A stretch of DNA of 64,000 bases from an uncultured bacterium (GTDB lineage: Bacteria; Patescibacteriota; Minisyncoccia; Phycocordibacterales; GWA1-40-21), in NCBI GenBank assembly GCA_963798465.1, contig CAWCTC010000001.1, forward strand, positions 528,465 through 592,464, written 5' to 3'. The translations under genes were made by a program, and so were the position numbers. Below are positions 6,584 through 58,664 of this stretch, piece after piece. Below the pieces are notes generated by a model. It was not told the DNA's origin. It saw nothing but the letters and a program-made list of their open reading frames with translations, and ran no database searches. Position 1 is the stretch's first letter. Every line of letters begins with the position of its first letter.

Positions 6584-7714
6584 TTAATTTTCATGCTGCA
6601 GGCCGATTTTTATTATTTCATGAGCTATCAGATCAGCTGCATCGCCTTTTATAAAACTCTTTGCACCTTCGCTCATTTTTTTCTGCAGATTGTTATCATC
6701 CATAATTCTAGTAATTTCAGAAAGCAATATATTCGGCGAAAGGTTAATTTCTTCTATGACGATTGCTCCGCCTGATCTCGCATAGTTGTAAGCATTCTGC
6801 CTTTGATGATCTCCATTCGTATCTGCAATCGGAATAATTATGCTAGGAATTCCCCAGTATGCAATTTCAAAAATTGCCGAACCGGCTCTTGAAACAATCA
6901 AGCTTGAAGCGCCTGCAGACATACTCATATTCAAATCGTCAAGATAATCAAACGGTCTGTATCTGTTTTTCAGTTTATTATCTGTCAAAACTACGCCGGA
7001 AGTTCCCAAAACTTCTTCAATATTTGCCTTTCCAACTTGATGAATAACATAATATTTTTCGACAAGAGCCGGTAATATACTCATAATCTGATCATTTATA
7101 ATTTTTGCGCCAAGCGATCCGCCCAAAATAAGTATCGTTGGAATATCTTCCATCAAATTTAAAAATTTTCTTGCATCATCTCTAGCAGGAAGCATTTGGA
7201 TGCTTTTTCTTACAGGATTTCCGGTAACCGCAACTTTTTTGGAATCAAAATATTTTGCGGCTTCGGGATAAGAAACGGCAACCCTTTGTGCAAATTTTGC
7301 CGCCCAGGCATTTGTCCTTCCTGGCGCGCTGTCTGATTCATGTACTACCACAGGTATCCTCAATATTTTTGCGGCAAACAGAACAGGAAAACTTGAATAA
7401 GCTCCTTTGCTAAAAATAACGTCGGGATAAAGATTGAAAACTTTTATTGTCGCGTCTATCACTCCGAAAAATGTTTTGAAAAAATCAAAAAAATTAAGTA
7501 TGGAAAAATATCTTCTGGATTTGCCAGCAGAAATTTTTATATATTCGATATTATTTTCTAAAAGCATATCGGCATCATGCGGAGAATCCGACATATAAAA
7601 AAGCTGTATCGGAAGAAGTTTTTCATCCTTTACGATTTTATTTATCGATTCGGCAACCGCTATGAGAGGATAAAAATGTCCGCCTGTGCCTCCTCCTGTT
7701 AAAAGAATTTTCAT
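6584..7714 (-). CDS. murG: Lipid II-forming UDP-GlcNAc transferase MurG
   Basis: N-terminus MKILLTGGGTGGHFYPLIAV, 376 aa, and it follows ftsW in a dcw-type cluster. Confidence 0.93.
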   Translation of the reverse strand: MKILLTGGGTGGHFYPLIAVAESINKIVKDEKLLPIQLFYMSDSPHDADMLLENNIEYIKISAGKSRRYFSILNFFDFFKTFFGVIDATIKVFNLYPDVIFSKGAYSSFPVLFAAKILRIPVVVHESDSAPGRTNAWAAKFAQRVAVSYPEAAKYFDSKKVAVTGNPVRKSIQMLPARDDARKFLNLMEDIPTILILGGSLGAKIINDQIMSILPALVEKYYVIHQVGKANIEEVLGTSGVVLTDNKLKNRYRPFDYLDDLNMSMSAGASSLIVSRAGSAIFEIAYWGIPSIIIPIADTNGDHQRQNAYNYARSGGAIVIEEINLSPNILLSEITRIMDDNNLQKKMSEGAKSFIKGDAADLIAHEIIKIGLQHEN

Positions 7715-7717
7715 TTA

Positions 7718-7852
7718 CCCGAGAAAATTTTTGCCGATAAAAATCACTGTTTCGACAAAACAGCGATATATGTTATTCTTTTTGATTAATTTTGTCATCA
7801 TTGCGGGTTGTAAATAATAATTTTTAGAAACGTCGACAAAAACTTTAACAGG
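7718..7852 (+). repeat. MITE-like element, family C, copy 1 (imperfect terminal inverted repeats)
   Basis: Termini are CCCGAGAAAATTTTTGCCGA and TCGACAAAAACTTTAACAGG; the reverse complement of the right end aligns with the left end. It is nearly identical to copy 2 at 8982-9117. It fills the ftsW-murG spacer and stops 3 nt from the murG start codon. Confidence 0.85.
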
Positions 7853-7868
7853 TGAATTATTTTTTAAA

Positions 7869-8978
7869 TCAAGCTTTTTTATTAAATCTGGACACGCTTA
7901 AAATTATTCCTATTTGAACCAAAAGTATGAACATTGCGGTTCCTCCTTGGCTGAAAAAAGCCAAAGGCAATCCTGAAAAAGGAACGATGCCCAATACTGA
8001 AGCTATATTTATAAAAGACTGCAGTATCGTAAGTATAACAATTCCGAACACCAAAAGTCCACCGAAAGGATCAACAGATTTTATAGCTATTCTAAAACCG
8101 AAAAATACGAAAAATAAAAATAAGATTATTATAGAAACACATCCGACAAAGCCCAGCTCCTCGCCAAGCACGGCAAAAATCGTGTCGCTTATCGACTCCG
8201 GAAGAAATTGATATTTTTGAATGCTCTGTCCCAAACCTTTTCCAAAAATCTCTCCGGAACCGACGGCGATCAAGGATTGCTGAACTTGATATCCGGCATT
8301 TTGAGAATCGGCTGACGGATGTATAAAAGTTTGTATTCTCGACATGACATACGGTCTGGTAAAAGCCAAAATCGCTATGCAGATTATTCCAAGTGCGCCC
8401 AAAATAAAAACATATTTGATTTTTCCACCGGCAATTATGAACATTGAGATTAGTGCAATACAAATAATTACAAAGGAATCCGTATCAGGCTGAGCCAAAA
8501 GAAGAGCACCGACAATACCCATGATGACAAGCAGAGGCACAAAACCGAATTTGAAAGTTGAAACTTTTTCTTTTATCGATGAAAGCCATGCAGCCCAATA
8601 GACAATTACGCCTATATTCAATATTTCAACAGGTTGGAAAGAAAAACCGAAGATGGAAATCCATCTTTTTGCGAAAGTATTGAGATTTGTCCCGATATGA
8701 GGAACAAAAACCAAAGCAGTAAAAATCAATGAACCTATTAAGATAGGAAAAGAATATTTTTTAAGAATTTTATAATCTATTTTTATAAAAATAAAACATG
8801 CCAGTCCGCCGAGGATTATCCCGAAAAATATCTGCTTGAAAACCACGGATGCAAATTGAGTGCTGTTTTTTGCAAGTATTCCCATGGAAGCCGAAACAAA
8901 AATAGTAAAGCCGATAACCATGAGAATGATTACTATTCCAAGAAAAACTTTATCGATTCCTTTGCTGTTTGATGACAT
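7869..8978 (-). CDS. ftsW: SEDS-family peptidoglycan polymerase FtsW/RodA
   Basis: 369 aa, about 10 TM helices, located between mraY and murG. Confidence 0.9.
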   Translation of the reverse strand: MSSNSKGIDKVFLGIVIILMVIGFTIFVSASMGILAKNSTQFASVVFKQIFFGIILGGLACFIFIKIDYKILKKYSFPILIGSLIFTALVFVPHIGTNLNTFAKRWISIFGFSFQPVEILNIGVIVYWAAWLSSIKEKVSTFKFGFVPLLVIMGIVGALLLAQPDTDSFVIICIALISMFIIAGGKIKYVFILGALGIICIAILAFTRPYVMSRIQTFIHPSADSQNAGYQVQQSLIAVGSGEIFGKGLGQSIQKYQFLPESISDTIFAVLGEELGFVGCVSIIILFLFFVFFGFRIAIKSVDPFGGLLVFGIVILTILQSFINIASVLGIVPFSGLPLAFFSQGGTAMFILLVQIGIILSVSRFNKKA

Positions 8979-8981
8979 TTA

Positions 8982-9117
8982 CCCGAGAAAATTTTTGCCG
9001 ATAAAAATTACTGTTTCGGCAAAACAGCAATATACGTTATTCTTTTTGATTAATTTTGTCATCATTGCGGATTTTTAAATAATAATTTTTAGAAACGTCG
9101 ACAAAAACTTTAGCGGG
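8982..9117 (+). repeat. MITE-like element, family C, copy 2
   Basis: Termini are CCCGAGAAAATTTTTGCCGA and CGACAAAAACTTTAGCGGG. It fills the mraY-ftsW spacer and begins 3 nt from the ftsW start codon (..GACATTTA|CCCGAG). Confidence 0.85.
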
Positions 9118-9118
9118 T

Positions 9119-10195
9119 TTATATTTTTATCAAAGCCAAAATTACGCCGAATATCGCACAGACGATTCCAACGACCCAATATCTCATTGTGACTTTGGAC
9201 GCTGGCCAGCCTTTCGCTTCAAAATGGTGATGGACCGGAGCAACCAGAAAAACCTTTTTACCATGCCTGAATTTTTTTGAACAGACTTGTATTATCACCG
9301 ATAGAGAAGTTACAACTAAAGGAAATGCTATAATCGGCAAAACTGCGATTCCTCTTCCATCGCCCATTGAGTCCGTCATGAAAGCGACTATCGCTAAAGT
9401 GATTGTAAGCGCCATGCTTCCCGTCTCTGACATATAAAATCTTGCCGGCGGAATATTAAACCAGAGAAATGCCAGAATTGCACCGACGAGAACTGCGCAG
9501 AAAGCTGCAAGATTTATCTGATTTTGAAAAAATGCAATACCGGCGTATGCGGCAAAGATAGAAGCAAAAACTCCTCCGGCAAGCCCGTCTATTCCATCAA
9601 TAACTCCGCCTGAATAAATAAATAAAGTTATGAGAACGAAAACAGGAATAAACCATAGGCCCAAGATTGTTTTGCCCATAAAAGGAATGCTTATGCTATT
9701 TACATCCAATTTAAAATAAAACCAAAGAGAAATTAAAAATGAAATTATTCCGACAAAAAACAATCTCTTTTTTAAAGAAAGTCCGCCGGCATAATTTCCG
9801 CCACCGCCTTTTATTTCCAAAACATCATCTACAAGACCTACAATAGCTCCGAGAAAAAGTACAGAAAGAGGAATCCATGTTTGATCTCTGCTTAAAAAAT
9901 CCAGTTTGGAAAAAATACTTCCTGGAAATAAATGGCTGAACAGCCAGAAAACTAAAGTTGTAACAATTGCCGACATCCAAATCAATATTCCACCCATTCT
10001 CGGTGTGCTTACTTCCCTTTCTGCGTGCAAACTGCTGAAAATCGGCGTGCCTCCACCATCTATTGAAACGCTTTTGACTTTCTTCTTCCACATTTTATTC
10101 CTGTATAAAAATTCTGTAAGCAAAGGAGCGGAAAACATTCCGATAATGAAAGCTATTATTGATGGCAGGATTACTTTTACTAAATCGATTTGCAT
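9119..10195 (-). CDS. mraY: Phospho-N-acetylmuramoyl-pentapeptide transferase MraY
   Basis: 358-aa polytopic protein with motifs GLVDDVLEIKGG, VIDGIDGLAGG and APVHHHFE. Confidence 0.95.
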   Translation of the reverse strand: MQIDLVKVILPSIIAFIIGMFSAPLLTEFLYRNKMWKKKVKSVSIDGGGTPIFSSLHAEREVSTPRMGGILIWMSAIVTTLVFWLFSHLFPGSIFSKLDFLSRDQTWIPLSVLFLGAIVGLVDDVLEIKGGGGNYAGGLSLKKRLFFVGIISFLISLWFYFKLDVNSISIPFMGKTILGLWFIPVFVLITLFIYSGGVIDGIDGLAGGVFASIFAAYAGIAFFQNQINLAAFCAVLVGAILAFLWFNIPPARFYMSETGSMALTITLAIVAFMTDSMGDGRGIAVLPIIAFPLVVTSLSVIIQVCSKKFRHGKKVFLVAPVHHHFEAKGWPASKVTMRYWVVGIVCAIFGVILALIKI

Positions 10196-13125: not shown

Positions 13126-13687
13126 TTCTTAATTTGCTAAACATATATTCATCTATTAGTTTACCACGATATTTACGATTTTTTCTCAAAATTCCCTCCA
13201 GTTTAAAACCATTTTTTAATAAAACTTTTTTAGAAGCGTCATTCCAAGTAAAAACTACTGCTTCTACCCTTTGTAAACCCTTAATTGTCTTAAAAAGATA
13301 ATTCTTATAAATTTTTATAGATTCAGATATTATTCCTTTATTCCAGTATTTTTCCCCGAGCCAATAACCAAATGTAAATATAAGAGGCTCATTATTTTTC
13401 TTGAAATATCCCCCGATAACCCCGACAGCAAGTCCACCAACATCAATTACAAAATCATTTTGGCTGTGTTTATTTGCTTTTTCTACAATTGATGCATTAA
13501 TAAAATTTTTAGATTCTTTCATAATATTTAAACTTATAGAATTTGTTATGAAATTTCTAAAAATAGTTTTATTGCCAGCATTTTTTACCAAAGAAATAAA
13601 ATCCTCTTTCTTATAGGGTCTTAAAATAAATCCTTTTCCTTTTAATGTAATTTCTTTATTTTTCACTTTTTTTCTGCTTAATCTCAA
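13115..13687 (-). CDS. GNAT-family N-acetyltransferase (RimJ/RimL-like), paralog 1
   Basis: 190 aa (GYWLGEKYWNKGIISE.., ..NDASKKVLLKNGFKLEGIL). It overlaps the aspS 3' end by 32 nt and the next GNAT by 11 nt. Confidence 0.85.
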   Translation of the reverse strand: MRLSRKKVKNKEITLKGKGFILRPYKKEDFISLVKNAGNKTIFRNFITNSISLNIMKESKNFINASIVEKANKHSQNDFVIDVGGLAVGVIGGYFKKNNEPLIFTFGYWLGEKYWNKGIISESIKIYKNYLFKTIKGLQRVEAVVFTWNDASKKVLLKNGFKLEGILRKNRKYRGKLIDEYMFSKLRNEK

Positions 13688-15062
13688 TTCTCAAATCTCT
13701 TAGTTGTTCTGCAGATACAGGTCCTGGAGCATTTATCATTAAATCTTTTCCTTCACCATTTTTTGCAAAAGCAATAACTTCGCGAATATTTGGTTCATTT
13801 TCAAGGATCATAATAAGTCTATCAAGCCCCCAAGCGATTCCTCCATGTGGTGGAACTCCTGTCTCAAACGCTCTAAGCATATGACCATATTCTCTTTCAA
13901 TTTTCTCATCGCTGAAGTCCATTATTTCAAGAACTTTTCTCAAAGCTTCAGGTCTATGATTTCTAATACTTCCTCCACCAGCTTCATTTCCGTTTAAAGC
14001 AAGATCATACTGTGCAGCCATAATATTTTCAATGTTTGTTTTCGCCATCAAATCTTTCATTGATTCTGGTTTTGTTGTTGAAAAAGGATTGTGAGTAAAA
14101 GTCCATTTTCCTTTATCATCTTTTTCAAACATTGGAAAATCTACAACCCAAGCAAAAGCTAATAAATCTTTATCTTCCTTGTCTTTTCTCAAATCTGGCT
14201 TATCTGTTCCATATTTTTCCATAGATTCTTTATAAGTAATCTTTGGAAAAGGAATTTGCTGAATTTTCTTTTGGGGATAAAGTTTTTGAATAACTTCAAT
14301 AATAACTCTTTCATTTACACCCATTACATCTTCCTCCGTCGGGAAGCTCATTTCTAAGTCCATCTGAGTGAACTCCGGCTGTCTATCTCCTCTTGTATCT
14401 TCATCGCGGAAACATCTAGCAAATTGGAAATATTTTTCAAATCCGGAAGCCATCAGAAGCTGTTTGTATTGCTGTGGAGATTGTGGAAGAGCGTAAAAAC
14501 TTCCAGTTTCAATTCTTGAAGGCACTATAAAATCCCTTGAACCTTCTGCCGTAGCATTTGTAAGAATTGGAGTTTCAATTTCACAAAAACCTTCTTTTTC
14601 AAGAAGAGTTCTTACAAGTGTCATGACTTTGCTTCTGTTGCGAATATTTTTTTGTAGTCTTGGTCTTCTAAGATCCAAATATCTATTTTTCAAACGAGAT
14701 TCTTCTCCAATTTCCATTCCGTCACTTCTGACATCTATAGCTGGAGTAATTGCTTCATTCAAAACAGCAAGTGAAAGCATTTCTATTTCAACTGCACCAT
14801 TTGCTTCATCTTTGTTCACCATTTTTTCAGGGCGAGCATTTACTTTTCCAGTTACTTCAACAACCCATTCTGGTCTGACAGTGTTTGCTGCTGTGTGTGC
14901 TTCTGCATGATTTGGCAAAGCTACCATCTGAACTTTTCCGGACATATCACGAAGATCTATGAAAATAAGTTTTCCGTGGTCGCGTCTAACATCCACCCAT
15001 CCGCAGATTTTTACTTCTTCTCCAACTTTTTTATTTAATTCTCCAATGTATGTTCTTTGCAT
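13656..15062 (-). CDS. aspS: Aspartyl-tRNA synthetase, short form lacking the bacterial insertion domain
   Basis: Class II motifs FRDEDTRGDRQPEFTQMDLEMSF, GGGSIR and GLDRL. DKPDLRKDKEDKDLLAFAWVVDFPMFE joins directly where E. coli AspRS carries its ~130-aa insertion; 468 aa. Confidence 0.93.
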   Translation of the reverse strand: MQRTYIGELNKKVGEEVKICGWVDVRRDHGKLIFIDLRDMSGKVQMVALPNHAEAHTAANTVRPEWVVEVTGKVNARPEKMVNKDEANGAVEIEMLSLAVLNEAITPAIDVRSDGMEIGEESRLKNRYLDLRRPRLQKNIRNRSKVMTLVRTLLEKEGFCEIETPILTNATAEGSRDFIVPSRIETGSFYALPQSPQQYKQLLMASGFEKYFQFARCFRDEDTRGDRQPEFTQMDLEMSFPTEEDVMGVNERVIIEVIQKLYPQKKIQQIPFPKITYKESMEKYGTDKPDLRKDKEDKDLLAFAWVVDFPMFEKDDKGKWTFTHNPFSTTKPESMKDLMAKTNIENIMAAQYDLALNGNEAGGGSIRNHRPEALRKVLEIMDFSDEKIEREYGHMLRAFETGVPPHGGIAWGLDRLIMILENEPNIREVIAFAKNGEGKDLMINAPGPVSAEQLRDLRIEIKQKKSEK

Positions 15063-15084: not shown

Positions 15085-15290
15085 CAAAATAAATCGCCCT
15101 CGCAAGAACCGAAATATTATTTCGATTTTTGCGAGGGCGAACGAGTTCGCGGTGCCACCTCACTTCTCGCCCGAAGAAAATTTTTAATAAAATTTTAACG
15201 GGTTTCTCATTAGGAGTTCTACTCACCCGAAGGCTTTCTTCTCCAAACTCCGCCGTGTTTTCGGCTTCAACGTTTATGTCTATATATTAC
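15085..15290 (-). promoter_or_regulatory. T-box leader (tRNA-sensing transcription attenuator) upstream of aspS
   Basis: In minus sense the T-box core is GTGAGGTGGCACCGCGAAC (complement of 15148-15161). It is followed by a terminator, TCGCCCTCGCAA..TTGCGAGGGCGA (15094-15140), then TTTATTTT. An upstream stem I-like helix reads GGAGTT..GGGTGAGTAGAACTCC. Confidence 0.8.
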
Positions 15291-20527: not shown

Positions 20528-20541
20528 GATGTTTTTTGTAT

Positions 20542-20570
20542 GTCTTTGCGAGCGTAGCGAAGCAATCTAG
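20542..20570 (+). repeat. GTCAT-hairpin-CCAG module (A type), forward orientation; left arm flanking the GIY-YIG gene
   Basis: GTCTTTGCGAGCGTAGCGAAGCAATCTAG. Its end overlaps the GIY-YIG stop codon. Confidence 0.85.
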
Positions 20571-20857
20571 ATTTGATCAGTTAAATCATTCCATTCAGGA
20601 TTATTTTTTTCAATTAAATCTAGCTTTTTTCTTCTTGAACCCGCTTTTATTTGTTTTTCTCTTTCTATCGCACCTAACATTATCTCGCATGCTTCGTAAT
20701 ATACTAATGTATGAATGTTATATTTTTTTGTAAAACCATCGTTTTTATTTTCTTTATGCTCTTTTACTCTTCTCTTTAAATCAGAGGTTACTCCTGTATA
20801 TAATGTTCCATTTCTTTGACTTGCCATTATATAGATACATGGAATTTTGTCTTTCAT
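20567..20857 (-). CDS. Small stand-alone GIY-YIG nuclease (UPF0213/YhbQ-like)
   Basis: 96 aa with PCIYIMASQRNGTLYTGVTSDLKRRVKEHK (GIY..YIG-type block) and a conserved E in LGAIEREKQIK. It is inserted between dnaK and dnaJ. Confidence 0.85.
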   Translation of the reverse strand: MKDKIPCIYIMASQRNGTLYTGVTSDLKRRVKEHKENKNDGFTKKYNIHTLVYYEACEIMLGAIEREKQIKAGSRRKKLDLIEKNNPEWNDLTDQI

Positions 20858-23363: not shown

Positions 23364-23387
23364 ATATTTATTATAACAATATTATTT

Positions 23388-23445
23388 ATCTTTGCGAGCG
23401 AAGCGAAGCAATCCAGAACCTAGTTTGCTTCGCTTTGCTCGTAAG
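23388..23445. repeat. Head-to-head pair of A-type modules (right arm degenerate)
   Basis: ATCTTTGCGAGCGAAGCGAAGCAATCCAG-AAC-CTAGTTTGCTTCGCTTTGCTCGTAAG. Confidence 0.8.
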
Positions 23446-25396: not shown

Positions 25397-25435
25397 ATGT
25401 TTATTATATCAAATTATTAATATATTTTATTTCTT

Positions 25436-25496
25436 GTCTTTGCGAGCGAAGCGAAGCAATCCAGAACCTAGTTTGCTTCGCTTCGCTCGCAATGAC
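25436..25496. repeat. Perfect head-to-head pair of A-type modules (60-nt palindrome)
   Basis: GTCTTTGCGAGCGAAGCGAAGCAATCCAG-AAC-CTAGTTTGCTTCGCTTCGCTCGCAATGAC. The 20-nt arms TTGCGAGCGAAGCGAAGCAA and TTGCTTCGCTTCGCTCGCAA are exact complements. It ends exactly at the grpE stop. Confidence 0.9.
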
Positions 25497-36307: not shown

Positions 36308-36380
36308 GTCATTCCCGCGGAGGTGGGAATCTATTCTTAAAAATTAATCAATGCTGGATTCCCACCTCCGCGGGAATGAC
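36308..36380. repeat. Head-to-head pair of B-type modules with 22-nt spacer
   Basis: GTCATTCCCGCGGAGGTGGGAATC ... CTGGATTCCCACCTCCGCGGGAATGAC. The 24-nt arms are exact complements, and each arm contains ATTCCC-N8-GGGAAT. Confidence 0.9.
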
Positions 36381-36394
36381 AATACAAAACGCAA

Positions 36395-36997: not shown

Positions 36998-37864
36998 TTA
37001 TTTCTTTCCGAATTTTTCCCTGCAATGCTCGCAAAGTCCGTTCACTTCATCCTGGATAGATTTTATTTTTCTGTCATCAAAGTTGACGCTCTTCAATAAT
37101 TCGGTATTCAAAAGATTTTTGGACAATATTATTCCTTTTGAAAGAAACAGATTCTTATCAGATGTTGTCAGCGTCGTCAGAGCTGTCAGAGGAATAAGCT
37201 CGTATTTTTCTATCATGTCATGAAGATTATTGTCATAAGGATAATTCCATCCGACAAATTTTAAGGCAGGCTGGCATTGGCCATACTGAATAGCTGTCGC
37301 ACTGAATTTTGTATTTGTAATCACCCAGCCTTCGGTCAATTTTCTTTTTTCTCCGCCATAGAAATATTCCTGTCCAAAGATATCGTCGTATCTGGCTTTG
37401 ACATAAAGAACAATTTTCAAATCCGATTTCAGATTGAAATCTGTGTGGAATTTCGCTTCAACCATTATAAGCTCGCCCGGTTTCCAAGCAACTATGTCAA
37501 CTTCATGCGGAACGCATTTTCCCTGGACTATCTGATCCGTCAAAGTTTCATAGCCTTCAGCTTTAAAAATCTCTGCAACAAATTTTTCAAAAGGAAAACC
37601 TGTCGGACCAAGCTGGGCTATGGCTTTTTTTAAAGAATATCTGACGGCGATAGGCCTCTGGTTTTTTTTCAAAATTGAAAAAGCCTGCCTGTAAATATCT
37701 TGAGTTGAAACAACCAGTTTTGTTTTTGCTTCCAAACTTATTTCAGATACGACGCGAGAAATAAGATCATCCGTCGCACCGGCTTTCTTTAGAGACATTT
37801 CAAGCTTTTTGTAATCAAAAAGCTCTTTTTCTCCATTATTTTTTATAACGTAAAATTCATTCAT
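36998..37864 (-). CDS. ATP-cone domain fused to a PD-(D/E)xK (Mrr-like restriction endonuclease) domain
   Basis: N-terminal VIKNNGEKELFDYKKLEMSLKKAG (ATP-cone-like). The central FEKFVAEIFKAEGYE..HEVDIVAWKPGELIMVEAKFH gives a D..E-x-K arrangement. There is a C-terminal CxxC. Confidence 0.65.
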   Translation of the reverse strand: MNEFYVIKNNGEKELFDYKKLEMSLKKAGATDDLISRVVSEISLEAKTKLVVSTQDIYRQAFSILKKNQRPIAVRYSLKKAIAQLGPTGFPFEKFVAEIFKAEGYETLTDQIVQGKCVPHEVDIVAWKPGELIMVEAKFHTDFNLKSDLKIVLYVKARYDDIFGQEYFYGGEKRKLTEGWVITNTKFSATAIQYGQCQPALKFVGWNYPYDNNLHDMIEKYELIPLTALTTLTTSDKNLFLSKGIILSKNLLNTELLKSVNFDDRKIKSIQDEVNGLCEHCREKFGKK

Positions 37865-37873
37865 GAGATTTAT

Positions 37874-38001
37874 CCGAGAAAATTTTTGTTGATGAAAATG
37901 TGTTGATGTTATATGACTTATACTTTTATGCAGATTTATCTTTTAAAAATGGTTCCTCTATCAGTTAATCATTTTCAACACGTCAACAAAAACTTTAACG
38001 G
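37874..38001 (+). repeat. MITE-like element, family C, copy 3 (divergent interior, longer inverted termini)
   Basis: CCGAGAAAATTTTTGTTGATGAAAATG ... CATTTTCAACACGTCAACAAAAACTTTAACGG. It begins 9 nt from the start codon of the ATP-cone/Mrr gene. Confidence 0.8.
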
Positions 38002-38031
38002 ACTAATAATAACAAAGATTGCTGCCGTCTG

Positions 38032-44172: not shown

Positions 44173-47100
44173 TTATTTTGACATATTTCCTGTTGGAAGA
44201 TTTGTCGGAGCGCTTGGCGTTTTCGGACCACTCATCGGCGCTTTTGGAATATTTGGAGTCTTATTATTTTTTCTGTAGAAGAATATCAAACCTATCATAG
44301 CTATTAAGACAATTACTATCAAAGCTACCATCGGCTTGTTTGGAATATTTGAGAAACCTTCTGCAACGGCTGCGAACAATCCTGCATTATTAGTTGAAGT
44401 TGCAACTGATGATGTAGAATTTGTCGATGTCGCCAATGAAACTTGTTCATTGTTGCTTGTTGTAGCAGAAGAATTGAATTCTCCTACTCCTGCTGGAATC
44501 GTTATTCCTGTGTCTGGAGTTCCGGAAATTGCTTCAGATGTTCCTGTTGTATTTGCAATAGTTGTGGTTGATGCAACTGGTGCTGTTGAAACTATCGGAG
44601 TAACTGCATTTACGATAACTGTTCTTGTCGCAGATGAAGTGTTTCCGGCTTTATCAGATACTGAGTAAACTACTGAATATGTTCCTGGAACATTCATATT
44701 GATTGAACTTACAGCATTTATATTAGATGTAATATTTCCATCAACATTATCATTTGCTGTCGCTCCCGCATCTACATATGAATCGCCGACATTTATATTC
44801 GCTGGATTTGCTCCGAGAATTGTAATAACTGGCGCAACAATATCTTCTGAAGATGGTGTTGTATTTGTAAATGTAGGTGTTGGAATAACTCCTGATGCTG
44901 TTGAACCTCCGTTGACGGGATTAACTACTGGTGCTGCGACAACATTTACTGTTCTTATAGCTGTTGCAACATTTTCTGCTGCATCGCTTGAAGTGTAAGT
45001 TATTGTATACGTAGCAACTACGGTTGTATCAACCGTTCCTGAAGTTGTTACTGTTGTTGAGGTTGCATCAAACGCATCATAAGCTGTTGCGCCTGCATCT
45101 GTGTATAGATTTCCAACTGTAACATTTACTGGGTTTGAACCAAGAATCGTGATTACCGGTGGAACTGTATCTTCTGTAACAACATTATTTACTGTAACTG
45201 CATAATTTGCTGTGAATGATCCAACTGTTACCGTCAAAACTTCATTTGGATTTGCAACTGAAGAATCAAATCCTGAAATGTTTGAATCACTGATATCATT
45301 AATTGTTGAAGTTGAATTATCTGAATATGTTCCTGTAACTATCATTCCTGTGATATCAACCGCTGAATCACCAACTGTGTAAACTGTTTTGGTTGGCAGA
45401 GTTGTGATTGCGATTGATTTTAATGTTGGAGCTGGAATTGAACCTGAACTTACAGAAATCGTGTAGGTTGCTGTTTTTCCACTAACATTAATTGTAAGAG
45501 TTTCGCTTGAAGTTGCAGCCGAAGAATCAAATCCTGAAATGTTTGAATCACTGATATCATTAATTGTTGAAGTTGAATTATCTGAATATGTTCCTGTAAC
45601 TATCATTCCTGTGATATCAACCGCTGAATCACCAACTGTGTAAACTGTTTTGGTTGGCAGAGTTGTGATTGCGATGCTTGATAGTGTTGGAGCTGGAATT
45701 GGGTTTGAATTAACTGTAACTGTTACTGTAGCTGATATTGTTGTTGATCCAGCTGTTCCTGTAATAACAGTTGTTCCTGTTGCAGAAGCTGTAAACAAAC
45801 CGCTTGCATCTATATTACCAACTGAAGTATCTGAGCTAGACCAAGTTACTGAAGCATTTATTGGATTACCAAATTGATCAGAAGTTGAAGCTGTGAATTG
45901 TGTAGTTGAACCAACTGACAATGTTAATGGTGAAGCTGAAATAGTAATTGATGATACGACTGGAGTTGGATCTGAAAAATCTGAAACTGTAACCGTTACT
46001 GTAGCTGATATTGTTGTTGATCCAGCTGTTCCTGTAATAACAGTTGTTCCTGTTGCAGAAGCTGTAAACAAACCAGTTGAATCTATATTACCAACTGAAG
46101 TATCTGAACTAGACCAAGTTACTGCTGCAGAAATTGGATTATTATTTTGATCCAAAGTTATTGCTGTGAATTGTGTTGTTGAACCGACTGACAATGTTAA
46201 TGGTGAAGCTGAAATACTAATTGATGATACGACTGGAGTTGGAACACTTCCATTAATCACAACCGTATAAGTTGCTGTTTTTCCGCTGACTGTAATTGTC
46301 AAAACTTCATTTGGGTTTGCAACTGAAGAATTAAATCCAGAAATGTTTGAATCACTGATATCATTAATTGTTGAAGTTGAATTATCTGAATATGTTCCTG
46401 TAACTATCATTCCTGTGATATCAACCGCTGAATCACCAACTGTGTAAACTGTTTTGGTTGGCAGAGTTGTGATTGCGATTGATTTTAATGTTGGAGCTGG
46501 AATTGAACCTGAACTTACAGAAATCGTGTAGGTTGCTGTTTTTCCACTAACATTAATTGTAAGAGTTTCGCTTGAAGTTGCAGCCGAAGAATCAAATCCT
46601 GAAATGTTTGAATCACTGATATCATTAATTGTTGAAGTTGAATTATCTGAATATGTTCCTGTAACTACCAATCCTGTTATATCAAGTGAATCACCAACTG
46701 TGTAAACTGTTTTTGTTGCTGGTGAGGTGATTGCGATTGATTGCAATGTTGGTGCTGGAGGAATGGCTGCAAAATTTGCAGTGACTGTAATATCTCCGGC
46801 TACTGCTAGATCAGTTCTTGTTGCTGTAAGAACTCCGTCGCTCCAATTTGAGAATTGGAATCCAAAATTTGGAAATGCTGTTACTGATGTTCCATTTGCA
46901 CCAGAGGCAACAACTTGAGTTGAAGATCCTGTTATAGAACCGTTACCATCAGTTGTGTAAGTAAGTGTAAATGAAGCTGGAGTTCCAATTGAACTTATTT
47001 CTGTTGGAACTGTAATCGTTGTAGTTGTTCCATTTATTGTAATAGTACCGCTATCAATCATGCCGTTCAAAATTACTGCATTAGTTGTTGTTGCATTTAC

Positions 47101-50100
47101 AAGAACTGTTCCTGTAATTGTTGAACCTGAATCAACTACGTTTGTAAGTGTTGAACTTGCAACTGTTGAGCCCGTAAGATTTGAATTCGTTGAAGTTGAA
47201 TCTGATATGACAACATTATTTAATACTGAATTTACAAGATCACTGTTTGTTGAAGTTGAATTTGTAAGTTGTGAATTATCAAGTGTTGAGAGAGTTACAG
47301 AACTTGATGCAACATTTGAACCATTGCTAATAGTTGAAGTTGCGATAGTGCTCAATGTTATTGTTGAAGCATCTATCGTTGAACCAGAGACAGTTGAAGT
47401 CGCAACATAAGAATGATTTGAAACTGTTGTGTAGTAAATATTTGATGCATAAATTTGTGAGTTTGTACTTGTTGAATGAATAAACTTATACAAAGTTAAT
47501 GGATCAATTGTTGAATATGCAATATAACAATCTGTTGCAAAATAATTTTCTACATCAGAATTTAATATAGTACATCTTGCAATGTCATCATTTGATAAAG
47601 TTGAGTTTGTAGAAACAACTTGATCAAGGTTTGTATCATCAACGGTTGTGTTTGTAACTGTTGAATTATTTACATTCCAGAATGTTGAAAGTGTTGAGTT
47701 TGTGATTGTTGTTGTTCCTGTTGTTGTTGCAATTGGAGCAAGCAAAGATTCTGCAAGTGATGGTGAATACAAGCTGTAGAAGATTCCTCCCATAGTTGAA
47801 TTCGTTATCATAACTTGTGAATCAGAAACTATGAATGGTCCATAACTTGTAGTTGTTGAAATATTTCCAGCATTATCTATTGCTGCAACATGGAACCAAA
47901 GGGTGCCAAAACCAGAATCAGTAGTTGTTGTGGCAGTTGTTGTTGAAACTCCAACTGTTCCTGTAACTATTTGAGTTGCGTTTGAATTATCCCAAAGGTA
48001 TTCATATCCGGCCAATCCAGATTCTGAATCTATTGAATTCGTCCATGAAATATTTGCTGAAGCGATTATCGTACCTGTTGCACTTGCATTTGTAATGACA
48101 GGTGTTGTTGGTGCGGTCGTATCAGGAATTACTACATTTGAAACAATAACTGTTCTTGTCGCTGTTGCAACATTTCCTGCTGCATCGCTTGAAGTGTAAG
48201 TAATTGTATATGAACCGATAGTATTTACATTAACTGTTCCAGTTGCTGTAACTGCTGTCGATGTTCCATCGTATGCATCGAACGCTGTTGCGCCTGCATC
48301 AATGTAAAAATCACCGACAAATATATTAGTTGGATTTGCTCCAAGAATTGTTATTACTGGCGCAATCGTATCAGGAATAATTACATTTGAAACTGTAACA
48401 GTTGTTGAAGCTGAAAATGCTCCAGCTGTTCCAGTTATTGTAGTTGTTCCGGCAGAAAGTCCGATGAACAATCCGCTTGCATCTATCATACCGACAGATG
48501 AGTTTGAACTAATCCAAGTTGTTGTAGCTGGGAATGGATTTCCAAATTGATCTTTTGTTGTTGAAGTAAATGTTGTTGTTGCTCCAACTAATATATTTGG
48601 ATTTAATGGTGCAATGCTGATTGAAGCAAGTGCTGGTGGAATAACTGCATTGTTTACACTTATCGTATAAGTTGCAGTTGATGTTCCAACTGTGATTGTC
48701 AAAACTTCATTTGGGTTTGCAACTAAAGAATTGAATCCTGAAATGTTTGAAACATTTATTGGTTCTGTTGAAGTTGAACCGTCAGAATATGTTCCTGTGA
48801 CAACAAGTCCAGTGATATCAAGTGCGTCGCCGACTGTGTAAACTGTTTTGTTTGCTGGAGTCGTGATTGCAATTGATTGCAATGTTGGAGTTGAAGTTGC
48901 AGCAGATACTGTTACAAGAGTTGTAATCGGCATGAGTGAACCTGCTGATGCAGTTATCTCAGTTGTTCCAATTGAACTTGCTGTAAATATTCCGTTCGCA
49001 TCAATTGTTCCGACAGCATTATTTGTGTTTGACCAAGTTGTGGTCGTTGCAAATGGCTGACCAAATTGATCCAAAGTTGTTGAGACAAAAGTTATTTGTT
49101 CTCCAACTGTAACTGATGGATTTAGCGGTGAAATACTCATTGATGTAAGTACTGCTGGAACAGCGCTGACTACAACTTCTCTTGAAATTGTAGAAACATT
49201 TCCGGATAAATCTGAAGAAATGTAATTTACCGTATATATACCGACATTATTGGTATTAACAGTTCCAAATATGGTAACTGGTCTTACTCCGTCAACCAAG
49301 TCGGTTGAAGAAGCTCCCTGTTCTACATATGTATTTCCTACGGATAGATCAAGGACAGCTGGTCCTATCAAGGACATTGCTGGTCCTGTTGTGTCCTTTA
49401 TAACAACCAGAGACGTAGCGGTTGCAACATTTCCTGAAAGATCTGTTGCTGTCCAAATAACTGTTGAAGTTCCAAGTCCGAATCCTGCTGGATTATAGGT
49501 AATAATTGGGCTTGTACTTGAGTTATCTGTTGCTGTAGCCTGTACTAATACTGGCGTTGTTGTTGTTCCTGTTGCTTCAAATACTTGAGTAGCTGGAACT
49601 GAAATGACAGGAGCTATTGTATCTACAACATTTACTATTCTTGTAGCTGTTGCAACATTTCCTGCTAGATCTACTGAAGTATAATCTACTGCATATGTTC
49701 CCAAAACTGAAGTATTTACTGAACTTGATGCTGTAAATGTAAGTGGAACTCCTGAATTATCAGTAACACTGACACCTGCATCTGTATAAAGCGTATTTAT
49801 TTGAACATTGGCGGGATTTGATCCAAGTATTGTTATAACTGGAGCAATCTTATCAATATTTGAAATTGTAATTGTCCTTGATGAGAAGTTTCCTGCTACA
49901 TCCGTTGCTGTGAACGTAACTGTTCCGTTGTTTGAGAAATCAGCTGTTGATGTTGCACCTGAATTTATTATTGAAGCTATTGTAGAAGTTCCTACAATAT
50001 TTCCTTCATTTGTAGTTGCAGTAACTATGACATCTTGATTTGTTGATGAAGTTGCATATGGAAGCACTGTAATTATTGGTGCGACTTTATCAATGTTTGA

Positions 50101-51270
50101 AATTGTAATTGTCCTTGATGAGAAGTTTCCTGCTGCATCTGTAGCTGTGAACGTAACTGTTCCGTTGTTTGAGAAATCAGCTGTTGATGTTGCACCATTG
50201 TTTGCAATTGAAGCAATAGTAGAAACACCTACAATATTTCCTTCATTTGTAGTTGCAGTAACTATGACATCTTGATTTGTTGATGAAGTTGCATATGGAA
50301 GTACTGTAATTATTGGCGCAACTTTATCAATATTTGAAATTGTAATTGTTTTTGAAGAAACATTTCCTGCTGCATCTGTAGCTGTAAATGTGACTGTGCC
50401 ATTATCTGAAAATGTAGCTGATGATGTTGCTCCTGAAGTTACTATGCTAGCTGATGATGAAGATGCAATTATTGTTCCTTCATTTGTAACTGCTGTAACT
50501 GTAACATTTTGATTTGTTGATGAAGTTGCATATGGAAGAATTGTAATGACTGGGGCTGTAAGATCTGCTCCGAAAGAAACAATTATAATACCATTTCCTC
50601 CGATTGCTCCGGCATCACCCAAATTTCCATTTGAGTTCAACCATCCGCTTCCTGCTCCACCACCGGCACCTCTTACTCCAGCTGTTGGAGCTGTGTACGA
50701 AGTAGCACTTCCTGTGCTTCCCTGACCTGAGATTCCAATGGCAGTTGTTCCACCATTTCCTCCGTAGGTTCTTGATCCGAGATTGCTTGCACCATTGGTT
50801 CCGTTTGTTCCACCGATACCACCGGCAAAACCACCGACACCGTTTCCAATGCCAGCTGTTGCACCTTGTCCGCCGAATCCTCCGTTAGCAACAACAGAAG
50901 ATCCGAAAGATGTTGATCCTCCGTTTCCTCCGTTTCCTGCTGCAACAGTTAAAGATCCAGCTGTACCTGCAGTACCTGCTGTTCCAATTGTGTAAGGAAT
51001 TATTTGTCCTGGAGTAACAGGAATAGTTGCTATCTTAACAGCTCCTGCTCCTCCTCCGCCACCACCGTATGTGTAGGCTCCGCCCGCTCCGCCTCCTCCG
51101 GCACCGATTGTTTCTACCGTAACGCTAGTTACACCAGCTGGTACGGTAAAATTTCCGCTTTTCAAAAGAGTTGTCGTAGCTGAATAATCAGCAAACGCAA
51201 CTGATCCGAAAGACAGAACGCCAAGGAAGACGACGATGAGGGCGCTTATTGTTCTAGTAATATTTTTCAT
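44173..51270 (-). CDS. Giant (2365 aa) cell-surface protein: signal peptide, glycine-rich N-terminal domain, many Ig-like repeats, C-terminal TM anchor
   Basis: Signal peptide MKNITRTISALIVVFLGVLSFGSVAFA. Residues ~50-230 are rich in GGxGG runs. Repeated modules include APVITILG.NP..V..G..Y.DAGA (HYR/DUF5011-like), ..SSDTSVGNID.TGLFTA.ATGTT.ITGT (Big_2-like) and LQSIAIT..KTVYTVGD.LDITG..VTGTYSD. The C-terminus has a TM helix, ALIVIVLIAMIGLIFFY, and a short basic tail. Confidence 0.9.
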   Translation of the reverse strand: MKNITRTISALIVVFLGVLSFGSVAFADYSATTTLLKSGNFTVPAGVTSVTVETIGAGGGGAGGAYTYGGGGGGAGAVKIATIPVTPGQIIPYTIGTAGTAGTAGSLTVAAGNGGNGGSTSFGSSVVANGGFGGQGATAGIGNGVGGFAGGIGGTNGTNGASNLGSRTYGGNGGTTAIGISGQGSTGSATSYTAPTAGVRGAGGGAGSGWLNSNGNLGDAGAIGGNGIIIVSFGADLTAPVITILPYATSSTNQNVTVTAVTNEGTIIASSSSASIVTSGATSSATFSDNGTVTFTATDAAGNVSSKTITISNIDKVAPIITVLPYATSSTNQDVIVTATTNEGNIVGVSTIASIANNGATSTADFSNNGTVTFTATDAAGNFSSRTITISNIDKVAPIITVLPYATSSTNQDVIVTATTNEGNIVGTSTIASIINSGATSTADFSNNGTVTFTATDVAGNFSSRTITISNIDKIAPVITILGSNPANVQINTLYTDAGVSVTDNSGVPLTFTASSSVNTSVLGTYAVDYTSVDLAGNVATATRIVNVVDTIAPVISVPATQVFEATGTTTTPVLVQATATDNSSTSPIITYNPAGFGLGTSTVIWTATDLSGNVATATSLVVIKDTTGPAMSLIGPAVLDLSVGNTYVEQGASSTDLVDGVRPVTIFGTVNTNNVGIYTVNYISSDLSGNVSTISREVVVSAVPAVLTSMSISPLNPSVTVGEQITFVSTTLDQFGQPFATTTTWSNTNNAVGTIDANGIFTASSIGTTEITASAGSLMPITTLVTVSAATSTPTLQSIAITTPANKTVYTVGDALDITGLVVTGTYSDGSTSTEPINVSNISGFNSLVANPNEVLTITVGTSTATYTISVNNAVIPPALASISIAPLNPNILVGATTTFTSTTKDQFGNPFPATTTWISSNSSVGMIDASGLFIGLSAGTTTITGTAGAFSASTTVTVSNVIIPDTIAPVITILGANPTNIFVGDFYIDAGATAFDAYDGTSTAVTATGTVNVNTIGSYTITYTSSDAAGNVATATRTVIVSNVVIPDTTAPTTPVITNASATGTIIASANISWTNSIDSESGLAGYEYLWDNSNATQIVTGTVGVSTTTATTTTDSGFGTLWFHVAAIDNAGNISTTTSYGPFIVSDSQVMITNSTMGGIFYSLYSPSLAESLLAPIATTTGTTTITNSTLSTFWNVNNSTVTNTTVDDTNLDQVVSTNSTLSNDDIARCTILNSDVENYFATDCYIAYSTIDPLTLYKFIHSTSTNSQIYASNIYYTTVSNHSYVATSTVSGSTIDASTITLSTIATSTISNGSNVASSSVTLSTLDNSQLTNSTSTNSDLVNSVLNNVVISDSTSTNSNLTGSTVASSTLTNVVDSGSTITGTVLVNATTTNAVILNGMIDSGTITINGTTTTITVPTEISSIGTPASFTLTYTTDGNGSITGSSTQVVASGANGTSVTAFPNFGFQFSNWSDGVLTATRTDLAVAGDITVTANFAAIPPAPTLQSIAITSPATKTVYTVGDSLDITGLVVTGTYSDNSTSTINDISDSNISGFDSSAATSSETLTINVSGKTATYTISVSSGSIPAPTLKSIAITTLPTKTVYTVGDSAVDITGMIVTGTYSDNSTSTINDISDSNISGFNSSVANPNEVLTITVSGKTATYTVVINGSVPTPVVSSISISASPLTLSVGSTTQFTAITLDQNNNPISAAVTWSSSDTSVGNIDSTGLFTASATGTTVITGTAGSTTISATVTVTVSDFSDPTPVVSSITISASPLTLSVGSTTQFTASTSDQFGNPINASVTWSSSDTSVGNIDASGLFTASATGTTVITGTAGSTTISATVTVTVNSNPIPAPTLSSIAITTLPTKTVYTVGDSAVDITGMIVTGTYSDNSTSTINDISDSNISGFDSSAATSSETLTINVSGKTATYTISVSSGSIPAPTLKSIAITTLPTKTVYTVGDSAVDITGMIVTGTYSDNSTSTINDISDSNISGFDSSVANPNEVLTVTVGSFTANYAVTVNNVVTEDTVPPVITILGSNPVNVTVGNLYTDAGATAYDAFDATSTTVTTSGTVDTTVVATYTITYTSSDAAENVATAIRTVNVVAAPVVNPVNGGSTASGVIPTPTFTNTTPSSEDIVAPVITILGANPANINVGDSYVDAGATANDNVDGNITSNINAVSSINMNVPGTYSVVYSVSDKAGNTSSATRTVIVNAVTPIVSTAPVASTTTIANTTGTSEAISGTPDTGITIPAGVGEFNSSATTSNNEQVSLATSTNSTSSVATSTNNAGLFAAVAEGFSNIPNKPMVALIVIVLIAMIGLIFFYRKNNKTPNIPKAPMSGPKTPSAPTNLPTGNMSK
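45266..46710 (-). repeat. Near-identical intragenic DNA repeats (four ~260-bp units plus a ~250-bp pair) within the giant gene
   Basis: The string ..AATCCTGAAATGTTTGAATCACTGATATCATTAATTGTTGAAGTTGAATTATCTGAATATGTTCCTGTAAC.. recurs starting near 45266, 45527, 46333 and 46590. The blocks 45700-45890 and 45960-46140 are also near-identical. Confidence 0.85.
49850..50560 (-). repeat. Three tandem 237-bp (79-codon) repeats within the giant gene
   Basis: Unit starts TTATCAAT(A/G)TTTGAAATTGTAATTGT lie at 49850, 50087 and 50324. They encode DKVAPIITVLPYATSSTNQDVIVTATTNEGNIVG..TFTATDAAGN.SS.TITISNI. Confidence 0.9.
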
Positions 51271-54941: not shown

Positions 54942-55662
54942 TTATTTTACAAATTTATCAGCACTAGTTTTTCTTTCCTTAACTTTCTCATCACTTTCTA
55001 TTTGTCCATCAAGCAACCTAATTATTCTTTGGGCATATTCGGCGGTATATGTCTCATGAGTTACAAGAATAATTGTATGTCCCATTTCAGTATTTAGTTT
55101 TTGAATTATTTCGATAACCGCTTGTCCAGATTTTGAATCAAGATTTCCTGTCGGCTCATCCGCAAAAATAACTTCAGGATCATTTACAAGAGCTCGCGCA
55201 ATGGCGACTCTTTGCTTTTCTCCTCCGGAAAGCTGAACCGCCTGATGATGCATGCGACTGGCAAGCCCGACGGAAACAACCGCATCCTCTGCTTTTTTAT
55301 TCCATTCGGATTCTGGAACGCTTGAATAAATAAGCGGAAGTTTTACATTTTCAAGAACCGTTTCGTGTGGCAAAAGATTGAATGATTGAAAAATAAAACC
55401 AATTTTTTCATTTCGCAGTTTTGCAATTTCGATAGGATTAAAAGAACCAATATCTTTTCCCAAAAAATAATAAGTTCCTTCTGTGTGATTATCCAGAAGT
55501 CCAAGAATTTGGAGTAAAGTTGATTTTCCAGAACCGGAAGGACCCATGATTGCCAAAAATTCGCCTTTTTTTATTTCAAGAGATACGCCGCGTAATGCTT
55601 CAGTTTTTGTTCCTTCATTTTCATAAACTTTCCAAAGATTTTTTGTTTCTATCGAGATTCAC
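54942..55662 (-). pseudogene. MacB/LolD-type ABC ATPase, frame broken by one extra base at codon 4
   Basis: GTG 55662 gives MNL, then after removing one G (CTC[G]ATA) IETKNLWKVYENEGTKTEALRGVSLEIKKGEFLAIMGPSGSGKST.., [14 protein letters not shown] and [11 protein letters not shown]. The span is 721 nt. Confidence 0.85.
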
Positions 55663-55666
55663 GTTT

Positions 55667-57898: not shown

Positions 57899-57971
57899 TG
57901 GACCACACCGGGATCGAACCGGTCGCCTCTTCCATGCCATGGAAACGCTCTACCAAATGAGCTAGCGGCCC
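57899..57971 (-). tRNA. tRNA-Ala (anticodon GGC)
   Basis: GGGCCGC/GTGGTCC acceptor with G3:U70, anticodon arm TTTCC-ATGGCAT-GGAAG, T arm ACCGG-TTCGATC-CCGGT; 73 nt. Confidence 0.9.
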
Positions 57972-58097
57972 TTTGCGCCAAGTGAGTATATTATAAAAAA
58001 TCATAAAAATCAAAAATAGAATAATAAAAAAAATTATGTTATAAAGTAATCGTGCACGGGCGATTAGCTCAGTTGGTTAGAGCATACGATTCATTCA

Positions 58098-58214
58098 CCC
58101 GAGAAAATTTTTGGACATTTAGCTCAGTTGGTTAGAGCATGCGATTCACATTCGCAAGGTCACAGGTTCGAATCCTGTAATGTCCACACATCATCGTCCA
58201 AAAACTTTAACGGG
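58098..58214 (+). repeat. MITE-like element, family C, copy 4: the same inverted termini, but the interior is tRNA-Val
   Basis: CCCGAGAAAATTTTTGGAC ... GTCCAAAAACTTTAACGGG. The termini can pair over 19 positions with 3 mismatches. Confidence 0.75.
58113..58186 (+). tRNA. tRNA-Val (anticodon CAC), nested inside the interrupted tRNA
   Basis: GGACATT/AATGTCC acceptor, GCTC/GAGC D stem, TGCGA-TTCACAT-TCGCA anticodon arm, ACAGG-TTCGAAT-CCTGT T arm; 74 nt. Confidence 0.9.
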
Positions 58215-58254
58215 CAAGTTCGTAAGGTCACAAGTTCGATTCTTGTATCGCCCA

Positions 58255-58486: not shown

Positions 58487-58570
58487 AAAATATAAAAAGT
58501 CCAGTGATTCAAATATGGGCATTAAAAAGGCTTGGAAAAATATATTCTTTATGCTAATCTTTTATCCACT

Positions 58571-58643: not shown

Positions 58644-58664
58644 CACAATGATACATCCACATTT

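Follow-up and report, generated by a model that had tools for sequence, protein, structure and literature searches.

The closest described system to the one reported here is that of the Ssn nucleases. These are single-domain GIY-YIG proteins of ~94 amino acids that bind hairpin repeats (NTS/SRM) in single-stranded DNA, and the repeats flank the nucleases' own genes (Chenal et al. 2025, PMC11893778). The authors of that study remark on a layout like that of an insertion sequence (IS), and the mobility of Ssn/NTS is only hypothesized (PMC11893778). Here we describe a 135-bp repeat from a 64,000-nucleotide stretch of an uncultured member of the Patescibacteriota (GCA_963798465.1, contig CAWCTC010000001.1, positions 528,465 to 592,464; hereafter the window). 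The window contains four copies, including one in each of the spacers between the cell-wall genes mraY, ftsW, and murG. The repeat is real and recently mobile. We propose that it is a non-autonomous derivative, similar to a miniature inverted-repeat transposable element (MITE), of a ~293-nt element that encodes a GIY-YIG nuclease; that it is mobilized by this nuclease; and that it is tolerated between promoter and start codon (we would put the probability of this at roughly 70%).

Like Ssn/NTS, this element combines a single-domain GIY-YIG protein of ~90 amino acids with a structured repeat that flanks its gene, and the repeat is also found in many copies without the gene, almost always outside of coding sequence. 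There are several differences. The two flanks of the element pair with each other across the gene, whereas the Ssn flanks each form a hairpin, and one arm of the element is coding sequence. Copies without the gene are 86-215 nt instead of ~30 nt, and the element lies at a fixed distance from start codons and shows insertion polymorphism. The element's protein is 39% identical to an Ssn-like open reading frame (ORF) in the window, and its best PDB match is UPF0213 rather than an Ssn entry. Finally, the SRM motif (HGTCWYN(0-2)YYVSBRHN(0-5)WNVSBRGN(0-2)RNCYNB) has 0 matches in the window, element termini included.

Other small repeats share some of these features. Classical MITEs are also short, non-coding, multi-copy, and bounded by terminal inverted repeats. 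However, the element has no fixed-length target-site duplication, and the partner with the same ends encodes a GIY-YIG nuclease, with no transposase version in the loci that we fetched. REP/BIME-RAYT and IS200/IS605-PATE resemble the element in having structured repeats, no target-site duplication, and gene-less derivatives that outnumber the gene; by analogy, the element may also share with them a small enzyme of the nuclease type whose substrate is folded single-stranded DNA. Their enzyme is an HUH/Y1 transposase, which forms covalent intermediates and rejoins DNA, while the only ORF of the element is GIY-YIG. Also, IS200/IS605 elements have their own subterminal hairpin at each end and a flanking target tetranucleotide, whereas the ends of our element pair together and TTTA travels along with it. 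The Correia elements of Neisseria and the ERIC/IRU elements of enterobacteria are 100-150-bp inverted-repeat elements in transcribed intergenic DNA, and they can carry promoters and form long RNA hairpins that affect the expression of the next gene. Our element is similar in size class, inverted repeats, and transcribed intergenic location. Correia elements duplicate TA; we know of no nuclease-encoding parent for them, and neither Correia nor ERIC/IRU elements are known to lie at a constant 3 nt from the start codon or to have a stop codon that abuts it.

Among GIY-YIG proteins, the free-standing homing endonuclease genes (phage T4 seg and the I-TevI family) are comparable as selfish genes that sit between host genes with little disturbance, and the catalytic residues are conserved. 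But the element's protein of 89 amino acids lacks a DNA-binding domain, and the element is found at many unrelated targets (51 gene families), not at one cognate allele. Nor are homing endonuclease genes known to have terminal inverted repeats or gene-less derivatives. UPF0213/Slx1-type nucleases are the best structural matches of the element's nuclease, and Slx1 cleaves branched DNA, in line with a substrate that folds into a three-way junction. Unlike the element's nuclease, these are cellular repair proteins or uncharacterized proteins, and we know of no description of repeat association or mobility for them. In the literature that we could search on MITEs in Patescibacteria, on GIY-YIG proteins with MITEs or terminal inverted repeats, and on COG2827, we found no description of the element.

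Copies of the repeat and their position at gene starts

A preliminary description of the window, made from its sequence alone, reported two nearly identical copies in the ftsW-murG and mraY-ftsW spacers, a divergent third copy before an ATP-cone/Mrr gene, and a fourth that frames a tRNA-Val. We find all four. Copy 1 (7715-7852, - strand) lies between the ftsW stop codon and the murG ATG, and in gene sense it reads 5'-CCTGTTAAAG...CTCGGGTAA-3'. Copy 2 (8979-9117, - strand) begins 1 nt past the mraY stop codon, and its terminal TAA abuts the ftsW ATG; the two copies are identical at 130/139 positions (93.5%). Copy 3 (37870-38002, - strand) precedes the ATP-cone/Mrr start codon (ATG) by 5 nt, is 66% identical to copies 1 and 2, and represents a subfamily with the interior TTGACGTGTTGAAAATGA.... 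Copy 4 (58095-58214, - strand) has the termini alone in common with the others; it encloses an intact tRNA-Val(cac) (58113-58187, + strand) and lies within the anticodon loop of another tRNA. Pfam confirmed the genes concerned (MurG, FtsW, MraY, and ATP-cone/Mrr), which are all on the - strand.

On the + strand, the left terminus of the four copies is CCCGAGAAAATTTTTG (TCCGAG.. in copy 3) and the right terminus is CAAAAACTTTAACGGG, or, written with its variation, CAAAAACTTTA(A/G)C(G/A)G(G/A). In gene sense, which is the reverse complement of the orientation that was used in the preliminary description, the element is 5'-CCCGTTAAAGTTTTTG ... CAAAAATTTTCTCGGG-TAA-ATG, where the ATG belongs to the host gene. 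If up to 3 mismatches are allowed, the left terminus has 10 matches in the window (2.3 expected; reached by 0/100 shuffles) and the right terminus has 9 (1.3 expected; reached by no shuffle). A CAT, which in copies 1-3 is the complement of the host start, lies just outside the left terminus at all four copies (7712-7714, 8976-8978, 37862-37864, and 58092-58094), as had been noticed before.

The element is not confined to the window. A search with the exact pattern of the two termini found 78 copies at 72 loci in ~12 metagenome-assembled genomes (MAGs) of Patescibacteria, most of them labelled Paceibacterota, with up to ~14 copies in a single genome. Allowing mismatches gave further copies, as well as length variants with the same termini (86, 156-158, 212-215, and 293 nt). 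In viral contigs, we did not find the element, and there was one weak protein match. Of 82 copies in other genomes, 49 have an ATG exactly 3 nt past their end (..CTCGGG TAA ATG) and 73 have one at most 14 nt past it; this ATG is nearly always the start of a long ORF, so the proximity of the CAT holds with more copies. The downstream proteins belong to 51 unrelated families (including MurG, FtsW, TrmD, SMC, RuvA, Ddl, RNase III, and MurA), and therefore the element does not mark a regulon.

Promoter-like sequences are also found at fixed distances. In 40/82 copies, a -10 hexamer (usually extended, TGnTATAAT) ends 3 nt 5' of the element, and 21/82 copies have an internal (TGn)TATAAT that is 55-59 nt before the element's end, 18 of them with the TGn. 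Neither peak is present on the antisense strand of these copies. In relatives, 10 of ~80 nuclease genes are immediately upstream of co-oriented tRNA genes, at -9 to +10 nt from them, which suggests that the preferred site is the gap from the -10 box to the start codon or to the 5' end of the tRNA, and not the ATG itself or the CAT triplet as such. At two loci (L134, 1501-1826; L139, 1234-1526), a co-oriented tRNA-Val gene (anticodons cac and gac) shares its first 9 nt with the nuclease ORF. At another locus (L036, 2084-2240) there is a tandem pair, in which the 3' flank (TGAA) of one element continues straight into the CCCGCTAAAGTTTTTACTAACGC of the next.

The preliminary description had also suggested that the element supplies a translation-initiation context or an internal promoter. 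This is partly borne out, by the internal (TGn)TATAAT in 21 copies and by upstream ORFs that begin with ATG and stop at the TAA that abuts the host ATG (31/82 copies). In copy 2, this ORF has 28 codons (MMTKLIKKNNVYCCFAETVIFIGKNFLG*; 8979-9065, - strand) and stops at the terminal TAA of the element, immediately upstream of the ftsW ATG; copy 1 has its equivalent at 7715-7801. We considered a conserved leader peptide and rejected it, as the ATG-started ORF is in just 31/82 copies and is in none of the copies of one subfamily.

These arrangements should be viewed against gene expression in the host. That murG and ftsW have no Shine-Dalgarno sequence, as was reported before, is true, but this is a genome-wide trait and not a property of the element: a GGAG-like word is found upstream of 6/43 genes in the window, and one has a classical Shine-Dalgarno site. 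The spacing from the -10 hexamer to the ATG peaks at 6 nt (seven genes in the window), as expected of leaderless mRNAs. Together these patterns suggest that leaderless or Shine-Dalgarno-independent translation is widespread in this host. The element thus occupies the place where transcription of such a gene would start.

Insertion polymorphism and the nuclease-encoding parent

The nearest relative of the window among our data is the MAG PLOL01 (92-95% nucleotide identity). At its mraY|ftsW junction (locus L003), both sides are 95% identical to the window and copy 2 is absent, so the nearest relative has no element in one of the two dcw spacers. The empty site reads ..gataaaaatataaATGtcatc (junction core ..ATATAAATG..) and the filled site in the window reads ..aaaaatataaa|CCCGCT...CTCGGG|taaATGtcatc. 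Copy 2 is thus an insertion relative to PLOL01, and the inserted unit is CCCG..CGGG plus TAAA. Similarly, an 86-nt variant in L064 is missing at four orthologous sites (including L008, L011, and L018), and here the inserted unit is unambiguously CCCG...CGGG + TAAA. In the third case, the window has the empty site (55644-55670, - strand; ccaaatatttaaaaacgtg) and the orthologous place in L080 has a full-length 293-nt element with its GIY-YIG gene (ccaaatatataaaa|CCCG..GGGTAA|aacgtg).

These three exact filled/empty pairs all fit an insertion of CCCG..CGGGTAAA without target-site duplication, and the flanks are not duplicated across the 82 copies, in agreement with the preliminary description. 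That description had taken the TTTA beside the left terminus to be flank. Instead, since TAAA arrives with the element in the 86-nt insertion and in the L080/window pair, the TTTA is part of the element. The same two cases rule out a fixed target-site duplication of TTA, TAA, or TAAA. An IS608-like flanking target is also ruled out, because TAAA comes in with the element. The earlier suggestion of a MITE with a target preference proved correct.

Short copies appear to be mobile themselves. The best match of copy 2 anywhere is copy 1, which is 1.26 kb away, and the next best match is 75% identical; therefore, what was copied was a short form. The murG site is occupied by different variants in the window and in PLOL01 (L003), with 103/147 identical positions in the element and 136/151 in the flank, which indicates turnover at one site. 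The orthologous murG-site copy, ~70% identical to copy 1, is found in L003, L024, and L038. Copy 3 and its ortholog in PLOL01 (L039) are 100% identical. In filled/empty pairs from distant genomes, the empty sites have leaderless-type promoters (TATAAT-N6-10-ATG). Some empty promoters (in L008, L018, and L015) have the form TATAAT-ATTCAC-ATG, -TTCCAC-ATG, or -TTTCCC-ATG; these look like the 5' flank of an element joined to its first C residues, and they may be excision footprints.

The preliminary description called for a search for an autonomous, transposase-bearing relative. There is a partner that shares the element's ends, and its gene is for a nuclease, not for a transposase. The 293-nt forms (L019 and L040) have an ORF of 89 codons that begins 26 nt after the 5' end, and the last codons of this ORF are the 3' arm of the repeat (ATT AGT AAA AAT TTT CTC GGG TAA, or ISKNFLG*). 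The ends form an imperfect 20-bp inverted repeat, in which CCCGTTAAAGTTTTT... pairs with ...AAAAATTTTCTCGGG, followed by TAA(A). The product, which is single-domain and comes from the sole ORF of the full-length element, is a GIY-YIG nuclease (Pfam PF01541, 51.9 bits, E = 9e-14, residues 2-71). It also has a weak match to an NCBIfam family of group I intron endonucleases (23.5 bits, under the 56-bit cut-off). There are ~194 clusters of relatives with 84-89 amino acids, all from MAGs of the Candidate Phyla Radiation. In 21 sequences, Y5, Y16, G18, R26, H30, and E62 are invariant, and these are the catalytic Tyr, Tyr, Gly, Arg, His, and Glu. The structure model (mean predicted local distance difference test, or pLDDT, 89.8) is a bare GIY-YIG fold, and its best PDB matches are UPF0213 BH0048 (1ZG2), Slx1 (7CQ2/7CQ3), and the catalytic domain of I-TevI.

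The nuclease's stop codon abuts the host start (TAA|ATG), and the following gene begins directly after the stop in every context that we read. The upstream ORFs of short copies end in ..IFIGKNFLG*, and the C-terminal ..I(S/G)KNFLG* is the end of the 89-amino-acid GIY-YIG proteins; judging from these sequences, the upstream ORF of the short copies is a remnant of the nuclease's C-terminus. The short forms are 86-215 nt, and mostly 126-138 nt; they have lost the ORF and kept the terminal helix. One MAG (JAVHRR01) has a full-length copy (L019) together with at least 12 short copies. We also fetched 80 further loci by means of the nuclease protein. The layout of inverted repeat, ORF, and inverted repeat is present in 51/66 distinct homologs, down to 45% identity and with differing repeat sequences.

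The window also contains the Ssn-like ORF mentioned above (20603-20836, - strand), which is a second single-domain GIY-YIG ORF. It is flanked by GC-rich hairpin repeats (TCTTTGCGAGCGAAGCGAAGCAATCCAGA; GTCATTCCCGCGGAGGTGGGAATC), which are at 20532-20571, 23378-23444, 25426-25492, and 36308-36385. These look like the NTS/SRM repeats of Ssn nucleases, although the strict SRM pattern does not match them.

Folding, mechanism, and competing explanations

The terminal inverted repeats, which had been described as imperfect, pair over 20 positions to form a helix (P1), of which positions 5-6 are always unpaired (a 2x2 loop). In copy 1, the 5' strand of P1 is at 7833-7852 (- strand) and its partner is 7718-7737; in copy 2, these are 9098-9117 and 8982-9001. 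In gene sense, position 10 is G.T in 90/90 copies, and positions 1 and 15-19 covary. Short copies have a P1 of 18-20 bp with the always-open TT/CT loop, plus a 7-bp extension past a bulge, and their interiors are not conserved.

Across the nuclease family, the 5' untranslated region pairs with the region of the stop codon over 17-24 bp in the same 51/66 distinct homologs. Differing repeat sequences pair alike; for example, ACCCTCCCAACTTTTTGGAC pairs with GTCCAAAAAGTTGGGAGGGT, which encodes SKKLGG*. In the 84-amino-acid forms, the ORF ends earlier and the 3' arm runs on untranslated to ..CGGGTA(C/A)ATG, and therefore the repeat is a nucleic-acid feature and not a coding one. In 22 full-length copies, a three-helix structure is supported: P1 links the ends of the element, P2 pairs the region of the start codon with the LHNA codons, and P3 pairs the KKV codons with the NFF codons. 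In this fold 97.2% of cells are paired, versus 41-51% with slid partners, and 10 pairs show compensatory change; this was reached by 0/500 shuffles. One change in P2 consists of two synonymous substitutions in paired codons (CAA to CAG and TTG to CTG).

We infer, by analogy with the Ssn nucleases and from the Slx1-like fold, that the nuclease acts on the folded single-stranded element and moves the short copies in trans. It would recognize either the terminal helix or the three-way junction and nick at its base, and host repair or replication would then complete the copying into new promoter-proximal sites. The short copies would be mobilized by nuclease that is provided in trans. The host gene could still be transcribed, either from its own promoter or from the internal TGnTATAAT, and the UAA-AUG junction after the nuclease ORF or its remnant might allow re-initiation on the host gene. 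Tolerance of the element may be tied to a host that lacks Shine-Dalgarno sites and has many leaderless mRNAs.

Several points weigh against this proposal. GIY-YIG enzymes cut DNA but do not join it. One possibility is that rejoining occurs by microhomology-templated repair at flanks that resemble the -10 box or the ATG, which would explain the irregular junctions: several filled/empty pairs from distant genomes do not look like simple insertions, as their flanks differ in length by 4-12 nt and in some cases the 5' flank came in along with the element. These junctions might also reflect recombination, microhomology-based copying, or excision footprints. There is no full-length copy in the 64-kb window, and we saw none in the 8-kb loci fetched from several MAGs with an abundance of short copies; all of the data are from MAGs. 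We infer the promoter and re-initiation roles from sequence patterns. The role of the conserved helices could lie in the mRNA, as a translational control of the nuclease, instead of in recognition of single-stranded DNA. Also, in some elements (L040, 3376-3668; L088; L091; and L093) the strands of the terminal helix are swapped, with 5' CCCGA(A/G)AAAATTTTT and 3' AAAAACTTTAACGGG (encoding KNFNG*) and with the orientation of the interior unchanged, which complicates strand-specific models.

A more ambitious version of our proposal is that this is an undescribed class of autonomous element that, at ~293 bp, would be among the smallest known. Its structure-specific nuclease would recognize the element's own single-stranded three-way junction and target melted DNA between the -10 box and the start of leaderless or tRNA genes, and the stop-start junction, upstream ORF remnants, and internal promoters would have evolved to keep essential genes expressed. 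We consider this version speculative and rather unlikely as a whole.

A quite different view is that the element is a cis-regulatory RNA leader of the host (a riboswitch, attenuator, or processing signal) and not mobile DNA. The element is co-oriented with the genes and has a fixed place at their 5' ends, and its terminal helix is conserved with a G.U pair in gene sense. The window copies also have mutually exclusive pairings beside the helix and a terminator-like hairpin: in copy 1, an internal 11-bp hairpin is followed by TTTTT (7743-7767, - strand), and this hairpin is also present in copy 2, where one of its pairs shows a compensatory change. But near relatives differ in the presence or absence of the element, with exact junctions, and the element's ends are the 5' untranslated region and the last codons of a nuclease gene. 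Nor does a leader fit well with an interior that is not conserved, with 51 unrelated families of downstream genes, or with the lack of an Rfam match. (We scanned with Rfam 15, using the gathering threshold over the whole window and a permissive E-value threshold on 7600-9300 and 57950-58700. Only tRNAs in the window reached the gathering score, no family matched the element, and nothing in 7600-9300 was better than E = 1.4.) We think it improbable that the element is primarily a leader, though it might have a regulatory effect as a secondary role.

About equally doubtful is the idea that the short copies are immobile and that each is the in-place decay product of a full-length element that inserted separately. 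This has some appeal because a full-length element (L077) and a degenerate short one (L042) are found at the same site, and the 156-215-nt intermediates look like internal deletions that keep the bases of the helices. However, two separate sites in the window hold short forms that are 93.5% identical (copies 1 and 2), and one of these sites is empty in the sister genome. Furthermore, two short subfamilies with the same deletion architecture are found at dozens of non-orthologous sites in many genomes.

The element could also be an ordinary MITE from an insertion sequence with a DDE transposase that lies outside of the DNA we fetched, as it is small, multi-copy, and intergenic and has terminal inverted repeats. 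We consider this very unlikely, since the three exact filled/empty pairs have no target-site duplication and the short forms retain the C-terminal codons and the stop codon of the nuclease ORF. In ~640 kb of fetched loci, there is no longer element with the ends CCCGTTAAAG.../...CTCGGG other than the GIY-YIG forms. A search for a transposase-bearing parent, with pairs of termini up to several kb apart, gave only mismatched pairs at the level expected by chance.

The tRNA copy, other features of the window, and implications

The tRNA that is split by copy 4 (58058-58254, + strand) has its 5' half at 58058-58094 (ending ..TTCAT) and its 3' half at 58220-58254. When the two halves are joined, all 120 artificial splice junctions give a cloverleaf, and none of the 120 yields a canonical anticodon loop (7 nt, purine at position 37). 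This outer tRNA is called neither by ARAGORN in intron mode (which reports the tRNA-Val only) nor by Rfam, and a metagenome scan for its 5' half had no match. The flanks of copy 4 (CTTG|CCCG ... GGG|TGAATG) place the element's gene sense antisense to the tRNAs. More fragments of the outer tRNA's 3' end are nearby, as a direct copy (58467-58484) and an inverted copy (58310-58329). We read the outer tRNA as a gene that was probably disrupted, in a tRNA cluster that has been rearranged, and not as an intron-bearing gene.

A spliced intron-like RNA (archaeal-type bulge-helix-bulge or group I), as might be imagined from copy 4's location in an anticodon loop and from ends that form a helix with a 4-bp outer segment, can practically be dismissed: the gene sense of copy 4, judging by its flanks, runs opposite to the tRNAs, a canonical anticodon loop is restored at none of the junctions, the bulge-helix-bulge geometry is absent, 117-138 nt is too short for group I, Rfam gives no intron match, most copies have no 5' exon but a -10 box 3 nt upstream, and the tRNA region has other fragment duplications.

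Near copy 4, a stretch of ~127-150 nt (58320-58469) recurs at 88-92% identity at three loci of PLOL01 (L018, L023, and L032), once beside two tRNA-Met genes. It may be another small mobile or structured element. Elsewhere in the window, a P1-like hairpin of 33 nt with no interior (15170-15202, - strand) is a candidate fifth, 'empty' version of the terminal hairpin. It is a close match to the element's terminal helix, and a similar hairpin is found in L004. The hairpin lies inside a candidate T-box leader (15130-15279, - strand) that is below threshold (43.7 bits versus a gathering score of 93; E = 2e-8) and is upstream of an ORF of 468 amino acids (13656-15062). An ORF of 2365 amino acids (44173-51270, - strand) has many internal repeats of ~230-300 nt (families D1-D11).

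Small single-domain GIY-YIG proteins are abundant and mostly uncharacterized, with demonstrated activity in the Ssn branch only. A nuclease of 89 amino acids with a defined structured DNA partner would also be a candidate molecular tool. A branch that is bounded by its own inverted repeat, with gene-less derivatives and insertion polymorphism, would show that such nucleases can found families of mobile elements. And because the element sits inside essential operons (mraY-ftsW-murG), between the promoter and the start codon, it bears on how genes are expressed without Shine-Dalgarno sites, whether by leaderless starts or by re-initiation.

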